A stretch of DNA of 64,000 nt from a virus, in the IMG/VR virus record IMGVR_UViG_3300042557_000330, positions 1 through 64,000 of that record, one strand, 5' to 3'. The position numbers were made by a program, and so were the translations under genes. Positions 7,854 through 8,933 of this stretch are shown here, piece after piece; within the stretch, counting starts at the first letter, position 1, and each line of letters opens with the position of its first letter. The notes under the pieces are model-generated. The model saw only the letters and a list, made by a program, of their open reading frames with translations. It searched no databases and had not been told where the DNA came from.

Positions 7854-8087
7854 TTAACTTATTTCTGCTACTCCAGTATTACTCCAACTAACCGATTCTG
7901 CTTTACAAGTAATGTGATGTTTATTTACCATTTCATTTCTTTGTGGGTCAAAAACATCATCTCTCGTTGTAAATGTAGGCACGTTAATTTTTATATCCGA
8001 AGCCAAAAATTCAGTACCATCTATTATCAATCGCCAAAACATTTTGTCATCGGTGCAATTGTGATTATATCTTATTTTAATATCCAT
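7854..8087 (-). CDS. Hypothetical protein in the sulfation operon
   Basis: Tightly coupled to both neighbours; no recognisable motif. Confidence 0.7.
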   Translation of the reverse strand: MDIKIRYNHNCTDDKMFWRLIIDGTEFLASDIKINVPTFTTRDDVFDPQRNEMVNKHHITCKAESVSWSNTGVAEIS

Positions 8088-8491
8088 TATAATTTTCCCT
8101 CTTTTCTTAATTGTTCTCTAATTTTTGTTGCCGAAATGTTACCTAAAACAGTAGGTGGTATATGCTCTATAATATCATAACCCACACCTCTACCAAACTC
8201 TACTGAACATATATCTGGTATAATCATCACCTTTATAATGCCAGCTTGTACAAACATTATATATTCCAATTCGATCATCTCTTTTACTTGTTCAACAGTG
8301 AAAGGATTTTTTTCGTTCACCTCTCCCTCTCTAATGCAAATTAAAAGGTTTTTACCCTGGTCAAGTGCTTGTTGAAACATAGCTTTGTGTCCATCATGTA
8401 ATGGTTGCCAGCGACCAATAAACATAGCATACTGATTTTCTTTTGGTTCTAATGATGATTTCACATGAACCTTTTTACTCCAATTTTCCAT
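8087..8491 (-). CDS. HxGH-family nucleotidyltransferase (cytidylyl/adenylyltransferase-like)
   Basis: FIGRWQPLHDGH and ISATKIRE motifs. Confidence 0.85.
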   Translation of the reverse strand: MENWSKKVHVKSSLEPKENQYAMFIGRWQPLHDGHKAMFQQALDQGKNLLICIREGEVNEKNPFTVEQVKEMIELEYIMFVQAGIIKVMIIPDICSVEFGRGVGYDIIEHIPPTVLGNISATKIREQLRKEGKL

Positions 8492-8933
8492 TTGATTTAA
8501 ATTCGTTAATCTTATGTATAATCTCTCCTAAAGATTTTTGTTCTGCAACATTTGTTGTATCAACATCTACAAAGTTTTCTGTAGGTGCCTCATAGTTTAA
8601 TACGTGATAATCTTCTCTTCCTCTAACATCATCAGTATGTATATAGAATTCTAATACATTGTGTTTGTTTTTGAATTCATCACGTTGATCTTTATATGGT
8701 GATACTAAGGAAACTATTACATCAAATCCTTTTGAATTTAGAAATAATGCAATGTCCTGTGCCTTTTCTATATTTTTTCTTCTCCCTGCTTCAGAATAAT
8801 CTTTGTTCTGAAAAACATCTCTAATATCATCACCATCTACCAATACAATATTACTTGGGTATAGGTAATCTTTTAGTTGTTTTGCTAATGTTGTCTTACC
8901 AGCACCTGGTTGACCTGTAAACCAATATATCAT
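8475..8933 (-). CDS. cysC: Adenylyl-sulfate (APS) kinase
   Basis: YWFTGQPGAGKTT P-loop, VDGDDIR, SLVSPY, YEAP motifs. Start set at ATG 8933. Confidence 0.88.
   Translation of the reverse strand: MIYWFTGQPGAGKTTLAKQLKDYLYPSNIVLVDGDDIRDVFQNKDYSEAGRRKNIEKAQDIALFLNSKGFDVIVSLVSPYKDQRDEFKNKHNVLEFYIHTDDVRGREDYHVLNYEAPTENFVDVDTTNVAEQKSLGEIIHKINEFKSNGKLE

Follow-up and report, generated by a model that had tools for sequence, protein, structure and literature searches.

All sulfate assimilation, and all sulfation dependent on 3'-phosphoadenosine 5'-phosphosulfate (PAPS), begins with ATP sulfurylase, and to our knowledge only two types of this enzyme, Sat and the GTP-coupled CysDN, are recognized. Sat (PF01747; PDB entries 1v47, 1j70 and 2gks) belongs to the HIGH-signature nucleotidyltransferase superfamily and comprises ~350-400 amino acids (aa), and CysD/CysN pairs a PP-loop ATP pyrophosphatase with a GTPase. 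In bifunctional PAPS synthases (human PAPSS, Aquifex Sat/CysC) the sulfurylase and the kinase of adenosine 5'-phosphosulfate (APS) are joined in one polypeptide or operon, and in enzymes of the PAPS pathway domains resembling Sat or APS kinase are known that are inactive and act as scaffolds or regulators. The window analyzed here, a whole stretch of 64,000 nucleotides (nt) corresponding to positions 1 to 64,000 of the 73.9-kb IMG/VR viral record IMGVR_UViG_3300042557_000330 (completeness estimate 64%), encodes a 134-aa HxGH nucleotidyltransferase, hereafter NT, next to an APS-kinase-like protein. On the basis of gene context, fusions and phyletic complementarity with Sat, NT is a likely candidate for a minimal ATP sulfurylase of a new type (ATP + sulfate -> APS + pyrophosphate (PPi)). 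It would share with Sat the reaction, the superfamily and the partners (APS kinase, CysH and sulfotransferases), APS-kinase fusions included; however, NT is a third of the size of Sat, has a single domain without the N-terminal PUA-like domain, and lacks the 'QxRNPxHxxH' and 'GRDHAG' signatures as such. With CysD/CysN it would share the reaction and the position in the pathway, but its fold is unrelated and it has no GTPase partner.

The nucleotidyltransferase and its partner kinase

The two genes are encoded on the minus strand of the window, the kinase gene lying upstream:

8475..8933, minus strand: APS-kinase-like P-loop kinase with a shortened lid, 152 aa from the ATG at 8933 (PF01583, 64.8 bits)
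8087..8491, minus strand: candidate minimal ATP sulfurylase (NT), an HxGH/ISxTxxR nucleotidyltransferase of 134 aa with an ATG start (PF01467, TIGR00125)

The initial annotation had reported that these genes overlap by 17 nt, and the coordinates of the open reading frames (ORFs) agree, as the NT gene, starting at 8491, takes in the stop codon of the kinase (8477-8475; overlap 8475-8491). The kinase frame is open from 8939, where a TTG two codons upstream of the ATG is also a possible start; the ATG at 8933 is the likely one, judging from the MIYWFTGQPG N-terminus that it gives, as in homologues.

The H32-D-G-H35 motif (HxGH) of NT lies within FIGRWQPLHDGH, and the C-terminal 'ISATKIR' motif spans I119-R125. 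The core motif 'GRWQPLHDGH' holds R27, H32 and H35, and 'ISATKIR' holds S120, T122 and R125; all six residues are invariant or nearly so in the family alignments, distant members included, and the signatures kept are G26-R27-x-Q29-P30-x-H32-x-G34-H35 and I119-S-A-T122-x-I-R125. R27, H35 and R125 align with Arg11, His19 and Arg136 of the nicotinamide mononucleotide (NMN) adenylyltransferase (NMNAT) of Methanobacterium, mutants of which are deposited in the PDB. Invariants specific to the family, kept even in its most distant members, are the G100-R101-x-V-G104-Y105 loop, R54 and N62-P63. NT passes the superfamily cut-offs of PF01467 (33.2 bits, cut-off 21) and TIGR00125 (34.3 bits, cut-off 27.7), and falls short of those for archaeal/NadM NMNAT (TIGR01527, 27.9 versus 181.2 bits; NF002243, 36.1 versus 127 bits), which match its N-terminal half only. 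Its matches are confined to nucleotidyltransferase families, with none of the CysD (TIGR02039) type, and no heptose-phosphate adenylyltransferase family is significant, phrog_7878 reaching only an E value of 0.0055.

The AlphaFold2 model of NT, built on 56 relatives, has a predicted local distance difference test score (pLDDT) of 92.4 and a predicted TM score (pTM) of 0.84. A Foldseek search of the PDB with this model returned weak matches to NMNAT and phosphopantetheine adenylyltransferase (PPAT), headed by the archaeal NMNAT 1m8g (E 7.5e-4, TM 0.60), with no ATP sulfurylase among the matches listed. The exhaustive VIA-align ranking gave NMNAT 1f9a (Z 9.9; 109 residues aligned, 25% identity), PPAT 4nah as the second-best fold match (Z 9.4), NadM (Z 9.0) and NadR (Z 8.2), the catalytic domain of Sat being more distant (1v47_B, Z 7.2 over 114 residues with 17% identity; 1j70 and 2gks, Z 5.8); HldC 5x9q scored Z 6.4. 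At the level of sequence, the family profile matches the Methanocaldococcus jannaschii NMNAT 1f9a with E 2e-15 in two pieces, profile positions 10-82 corresponding to residues 4-76 and positions 91-139 to residues 110-156. The ~33 NMNAT residues between them (77-109, after the 'DIE' strand), which we take to hold nicotinamide-binding residues in the M. jannaschii enzyme, correspond to 8 profile positions in the NT family. In the same profile search of the PDB no Sat chain was found among the best 60 of 69 matches (E <= 10), which shows only that NT is not a close relative of Sat.

The closest relative of NT is thus archaeal/NadM NMNAT (1f9a, 1ej2, 2qjt, 2qjo; TIGR01527), with which it shares 'GRxQPxHxGH', 'NPFT' and 'ISxTxIR'. 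It differs in having an 8-position 'SVxYGRxV' loop in place of the ~33 residues, 'IRD' (with R54) where NMNAT has 'GSAQ', and a gene context of sulfate activation rather than NAD metabolism. By sequence and modeled fold NT is a derivative of the NadM/archaeal-NMNAT branch and no small Sat, and it appears to represent a recruitment from that branch independent of Sat. The initial annotation, which spoke of a possible new small ATP sulfurylase, needs correcting in one respect: NT is no shrunken Sat, being closest to NadM/archaeal NMNAT. NT may be best described as a stripped NMNAT-like adenylyltransferase, with a predicted ATP site that is intact and a second-substrate site that is remodeled and arginine-bearing.

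Residues 1-20 of NT (8432-8491) contain a 'W-x-x-K-x-H-(V/G)' segment that precedes the Rossmann core and is modeled as an extra strand. The NTs of phages, Dadabacteria and Nitrospir-type genomes have kept it, as have the linkers of fused forms (L139 and L134 among the loci), and it is absent from the 112-117-aa forms of SAR406 and archaea.

The partner kinase matches PF01583 with 64.8 bits (cut-off 21.1) over residues 4-101, and all 22 of its sequence matches in the PDB are APS kinases (best 8a8h, 2e-11), with only residues 3-107 aligned. A stretch of 91 aa shows 32% identity with a canonical CysC, and in the alignment of its relatives the P-loop, DGD..R, YS..GR..NI and SPY motifs are kept.

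Complementarity with Sat in cellular genomes

A scan of cellular genomes, one per species, yielded 184 NT loci. A contrast between NT and Sat is seen in the order containing Dadabacteria (81 genomes, at least 80% complete), where NT is present at full length (E ~1e-44) in 61 genomes and Sat in 18, all of them NT-negative, while CysD occurs in none of the 81. No genome has both genes, 61 have NT only, 18 have Sat only and two have neither (Fisher p = 4e-16, ignoring phylogeny). Canonical CysC (225-241 bits) was identified in 75 genomes of the order, including 59 of the 61 with NT, and lies hundreds of kb from NT (633 kb versus 1079 kb on the closed chromosome G004), the genes around both being housekeeping genes that are not informative. 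A CysH-type reductase was found in all five NT-positive genomes checked (147-164 bits), two of which also carry sulfotransferases. With CysC and CysH present and Sat and CysD missing, these genomes therefore lack only the first step of sulfate assimilation.

For SAR406 (Marinimicrobia/Fidelibacterota), NT was found in only 4 of 151 genomes of a phylum-wide sample, which was too sparse, so that the family level was used. In the family around G003 (36 genomes of 0.7-1.1 Mb, at least 70% complete) NT is present in 20 genomes and an APS kinase in 21, namely the 20 NT carriers and one genome where it stands at a contig end. The kinase is always adjacent to NT at a distance of ~100 nt, and four of these kinases are canonical CysC. 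Neither Sat nor CysD was detected in any of the 36 genomes, and sulfotransferases are present in 29. On the closed 0.97-Mb chromosome G001 the kinase-NT pair lies inside a capsule/exopolysaccharide cluster with the order RmlD-like, CapD, UDP-GlcNAc 2-epimerase, Wza, unknown gene, kinase, NT, aminotransferase, Sulfotransfer_5 (163 bits), flippase-GT1 (GT, glycosyltransferase) and Wzi; this genome has sulfotransferases and an APS kinase, yet no known route to APS. Two to four copies of NT are present in some single-cell genomes of SAR406. For instance, locus L125 has a divergent NT pair at 7961-8314 (plus strand) and 8391-8741 (minus strand) beside a canonical CysC, and genome G155 contains kinase-NT pairs of both the canonical-CysC and the lid-less types.

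In all five Nitrospir-type loci an Rrf2 regulator, a sulfite reductase, CysH and NT follow in conserved order. The sulfite reductase is composed of two NIR_SIR modules and TusA, CysH scores 163 bits, and no kinase is adjacent to NT, which occupies the position normal for an ATP sulfurylase gene in an assimilatory operon. A conserved Glycos_transf_3 protein (PF00591/PF02885), anthranilate or nucleoside phosphoribosyltransferase-like and with no obvious tie to sulfate assimilation, follows NT in L134 (8561-9625, plus strand) and occupies the same position in L128, L131, L132 and L143.

In an archaeal order (marine group III-like) true NT members (E 1e-48 to 1e-51) are present in 6-7 of 35 genomes, none of which has Sat, and the only two Sat-positive genomes of the order lack NT. 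Cross-matches of archaeal NMNAT (~1e-13, confined to the N-terminal half of the profile; search at E <= 1e-10) were not counted as NT; G259 and G286 have such a distinct NMNAT paralogue in addition to NT. CysD is absent from every NT-carrier genome tested.

The distribution in cells bears on two further explanations. The first is that NT is a NadM-type adenylyltransferase of NMN or nicotinic acid mononucleotide that supplies NAD during infection, its link with the kinase being incidental or NadR-like. Archaeal NMNAT and NadM are the best sequence and structure matches of NT, a protein atlas cluster is named 'putative NMN adenylyltransferase', and phages often carry NadM-Nudix genes; however, the equivalog scores are far below cut-off (TIGR01527, 27.9 versus 181), the segment matching NMNAT 77-109 is missing, and neither a Nudix nor a Nampt partner is present, the kinase being APS-kinase-like rather than a ribosylnicotinamide kinase. 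Moreover, NT carriers already possess NadD or archaeal NMNAT. NadD scored over its cut-off in all five bacterial carrier genomes tested, as did CoaD, so that NT is not the NMNAT or the PPAT of the genomes that carry it. As this explanation would also leave the complementarity with Sat unaccounted for, it is considered very unlikely. According to the second, NT is a non-catalytic or regulatory partner of the APS kinase, comparable to the sulfurylase-like domain, itself inactive, in the APS kinase of Thiobacillus denitrificans, and APS comes from the host or elsewhere. The presence of 3cr8 among the structure matches and the possibility that phage hosts supply APS are in its favor, but little credence can be given to a non-catalytic role when R27, H32, H35, S120, T122 and R125 are (nearly) invariant in distant members, when the Dadabacteria NT is unlinked to CysC and replaces Sat, and when the Nitrospir-type NT stands with CysH and without an adjacent kinase.

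Fusions and viral gene neighborhoods

The search for longer relatives of NT gave many PF01583 + PF01467 fusions of ~250-370 aa. P0288, P0122 and P0297 join a lid-less kinase of the window type to NT, P0335, P0362 and P0370 combine a complete canonical CysC (191-235 bits, with the 'RDPKGLYKKA...FTGI' lid) with a member of the NT family, and the reverse order, NT then CysC, occurs in a metagenome-assembled genome (MAG) of Woesearchaeota (L159). PHROG 10255 is a profile of fused kinase-NT proteins. Among cultured phages the fusion is carried by Xylella phages Salvo, Sano and Bacata and by Stenotrophomonas phage DLP_6, with the following coordinates in the last two:

4590-5330 of Xylella phage Bacata (L001): kinase-NT fusion of ~245 aa with all family motifs
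4623-5354 of Stenotrophomonas phage DLP_6 (L002): kinase-NT fusion of ~245 aa with all family motifs

That fusions occur in both orders and with two kinase subtypes is a strong sign that both activities share one pathway. A survey for CysC fusions had been proposed as a check in the initial annotation, and its outcome was positive, for both domain orders and with fully canonical CysC included. The prediction made there, that NT supplies the missing sulfurylase step, is supported by these fusions, by the genomes with CysC, CysH or sulfotransferases that carry NT and lack Sat and CysD, and by the Nitrospir-type operon. Compared with known PAPS synthases the fusions of ~250-370 aa would be miniature, the sulfurylase half being a small NMNAT-like domain; many of the kinase halves are without the canonical lid, and both domain orders occur.

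'Long NT' forms of 320 aa were considered as a new architecture and rejected, since NT is there read through from an upstream ORF that is homing-endonuclease-like. In P0271-P0286 (320-326 aa) NT is extended by ~190 residues upstream, the extension being Cys-rich and homing-endonuclease-like, and NUMOD3 was identified in P0294 (431 aa). The kinase and NT genes thus seem to have been separated by the insertion of a mobile endonuclease gene that reads through in frame; the corresponding loci are L037, L040 and L059.

In the Joint Genome Institute (JGI) annotation many stand-alone 134-aa NTs are labeled 'adenylylsulfate kinase' (e.g. P0007, P0012 and P0028), a label that was probably carried over from fused kinase-NT proteins and hides NT as a separate enzyme. 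Other public labels for the family are 'cytidylyltransferase-like' and the protein atlas name given above. A full-text literature search found no description of the NT family and no role for DUF2061, a family whose member in the window is listed below.

The NT family comprises at least 8000 clusters at 90% identity in metagenomes, with 1219 representatives at 50% identity, and at least 470 viral contigs carry it. Neighborhood counts were obtained from 80 fetched viral loci. The kinase adjoins NT in 77 of them, an arrangement far from chance, and DUF2061 directly follows NT in 73. Less constant are the sulfotransferase (55 loci), a GT9-like gene (46), relatives of a 77-aa ORF (19, in variable position), a 106-aa ORF upstream of the sulfotransferase (17) and relatives of a 1154-aa multidomain protein (15). 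The corresponding genes of the window are as follows:

3297..6761, plus strand: methyltransferase + GT1 + GT9 (TibC-like) multidomain protein, 1154 aa (PF13489, PF00534, PF01075)
6754..7632, minus strand: GT9-like glycosyltransferase, 292 aa, a weak match (TIGR02201, 4.8e-4; phrog_8954, 3.7e-5)
7634..7852, minus strand: DUF2061 small membrane protein, 72 aa (PF09834, 2.9e-19)
7854..8087, minus strand: 77-aa ORF with no family in Pfam, NCBIfam or PHROGs, its start sharing 1 nt with the NT stop
8945..9763, minus strand: PAPS-dependent sulfotransferase, 272 aa (PF13469, 2.8e-22; PF00685, 2e-16; phrog_27463, 2.2e-41)
9832..10152, minus strand: conserved 106-aa ORF between the fibre gene and the sulfotransferase, no Pfam family found
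10157..17017, minus strand: fibre-like protein, 2286 aa, with Gly/Ser/Thr repeats in its translation, directly upstream of the sulfation genes on the same strand

The operon with a sulfotransferase and DUF2061 that the initial annotation described is recognizable as a tight run on one strand, with the PF13469 and PF09834 matches, and the gene of the 1154-aa protein is convergent with this run. The absence of Sat and CysD, reported for the window, extends to the whole 73.9-kb record, where PF01747 matches only NT itself (12.3 bits, below cut-off) and PF01507 (the CysD/CysH family) has no match. The argument drawn from this absence in one incomplete phage window is nevertheless weak, because the record is incomplete (64%) and the host could supply APS.

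The neighborhoods also bear on the possibility, raised in the initial annotation, that NT activates a sugar phosphate for the GT9/TibC-like glycosyltransferases, in the manner of HldE domain II or HldC in ADP-heptose synthesis. GT9-like genes flank the module in the window, and there are weak matches to phrog_7878 (0.0055) and HldC 5x9q (Z 6.4). However, a GT9-like gene accompanies NT in 46 of the 80 viral loci as against 77 for the kinase, no such gene was found beside NT in the SAR406, Dadabacteria and Nitrospir-type loci examined, genes for a kinase, isomerase or phosphatase of a heptose pathway were not seen, and the fusion partners are CysC rather than sugar kinases. An HldE-like function is therefore disfavored, as the GT9-like gene is a less constant neighbor than the kinase, DUF2061 and the sulfotransferase and was unseen beside the cellular NTs examined, and with no heptose family significant it would be surprising if it were correct.

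DUF2061 is a two-helix membrane protein. One metagenomic fusion of DUF2061 and APS kinase was found (P0393, 284 aa), some phage DUF2061 ORFs are 141-155 aa long, and DUF2061 was not seen beside the kinase-NT pair in SAR406 loci. The 77-aa ORF follows NT in the window, and a version of 101-104 aa lies between kinase and NT in L005, L006, L009, L024 and L045. The fibre gene belongs to a run of very large genes on the minus strand (10157-51395; 2286, 1628, 4580, 929, 1246, 820 and 1766 aa), which probably encode fibres and other structural proteins of a large Bacteroidota phage; the 2286-aa protein has long GTSGTS-type repeats and repeated Cys-containing blocks. Most of the remaining window is taken up by such large fibre-like and structural genes. 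Near-identical modules are present on contigs binned with Bacteroidota MAGs (L084, L086 and L096), and a blastn search of the region against cultured phages returned no DNA relative.

Proposed reaction and significance

In the proposed mechanism NT would bind ATP in the manner of its relatives, through its HxGH and ISxTxxR elements, and the family-specific R54 and R101 would hold sulfate where the loss of the NMNAT segment leaves a pocket. Sulfate would then attack the alpha-phosphate of ATP, giving APS and PPi, and this unfavorable equilibrium would be pulled by the translationally coupled or fused APS kinase, with which NT may form a complex, through the production of PAPS; in the Nitrospir-type operon CysH would pull the reaction instead. 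In the phage, PAPS would be consumed by the adjacent sulfotransferase, whose acceptor would most likely be a glycan or the Ser/Thr-rich fibre encoded nearby. That the virion bears a sulfated glycan is a possibility suggested by the neighboring genes, which encode GT9/TibC-like glycosyltransferases and the 2286-aa fibre.

Several observations weigh against assigning ATP sulfurylase activity to NT. NT misses the cut-off of the Sat family (PF01747, 15.8 versus 24.3 bits), matching over residues 29-57 only, at the HxxH turn. In the window kinase the canonical lid of APS kinase is replaced by a short conserved 'RGRE' segment and the score is below the NCBIfam equivalog cut-offs, and because of both the substrate of this kinase is itself inferred. 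The complete genomes of Bacata and DLP_6 have the fusion and no Sulfotransfer_3 protein, and the gene upstream of the fusion in Bacata is annotated as COG3236/GTP cyclohydrolase II (NADAR-like). In the SAR406 family, 11 of the 16 NT-negative genomes still have a sulfotransferase. The NT/Sat pattern of the Dadabacteria order may reflect a single displacement event, and most cellular NT carriers are MAGs or single-amplified genomes. Two Nitrospir-type MAGs carry a Sat-CysC fusion elsewhere besides NT, and in one gammaproteobacterial MAG a kinase-NT pair is accompanied by Sat and CysC. Genomes with both NT and Sat are a real limit on the complementarity argument; it is possible that in them one branch serves assimilation and the other sulfation or sulfur oxidation.

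The lid-less window kinase with its sub-threshold NCBIfam scores, the two phage fusions with no sulfotransferase detected and the NADAR-like neighbor would also fit an alternative in which NT adenylylates another small substrate and its partner kinase 3'-phosphorylates the product, yielding a non-PAPS cofactor, or in which another oxyanion (selenate or molybdate) is used. The logic of a nucleotidyltransferase followed by a kinase is indeed generic, as exemplified by PPAT and dephospho-CoA kinase in bifunctional coenzyme A synthase, where a small HxGH adenylyltransferase likewise precedes a 3'-OH P-loop kinase; the partner of NT differs in being APS-kinase-like, and the carrier genomes have their own CoaD. 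Such a substrate is nonetheless unlikely, although less so than the three explanations treated above, as the same NT family is fused to or paired with fully canonical CysC, complements Sat in genomes with canonical CysC and CysH, follows sulfite reductase and CysH in the Nitrospir-type loci, and is accompanied by sulfotransferases in 55 of the 80 viral loci and in the SAR406 capsule cluster.

Returning to NT as an ATP sulfurylase, a broader proposal seems reasonably probable, if a shade less so than the activity itself. Alongside Sat and CysDN, NT would represent a third class of ATP sulfurylase with an independent origin, derived from NMNAT and 110-150 residues long; paired with an APS kinase, lid-less or canonical, it would make up the smallest PAPS synthase known. 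Abundant ocean lineages (streamlined SAR406, Dadabacteria and marine group III archaea) that are now scored as unable to activate sulfate would have NT as their only sulfate-activating enzyme, and phages would use it in sulfating their own glycosylated fibres. If this is true, NT would offer a clear case in enzyme evolution of an NMN-binding insert swapped for an anion-binding loop, and a PAPS-regenerating module of fewer than 300 residues would be available for biotechnology. It would also account for phages having a self-contained pathway of sulfation. Current annotation would then be overlooking the activation of sulfate in marine bacteria and archaea of very high abundance and in their viruses, and inferences about which plankton need reduced sulfur would change.

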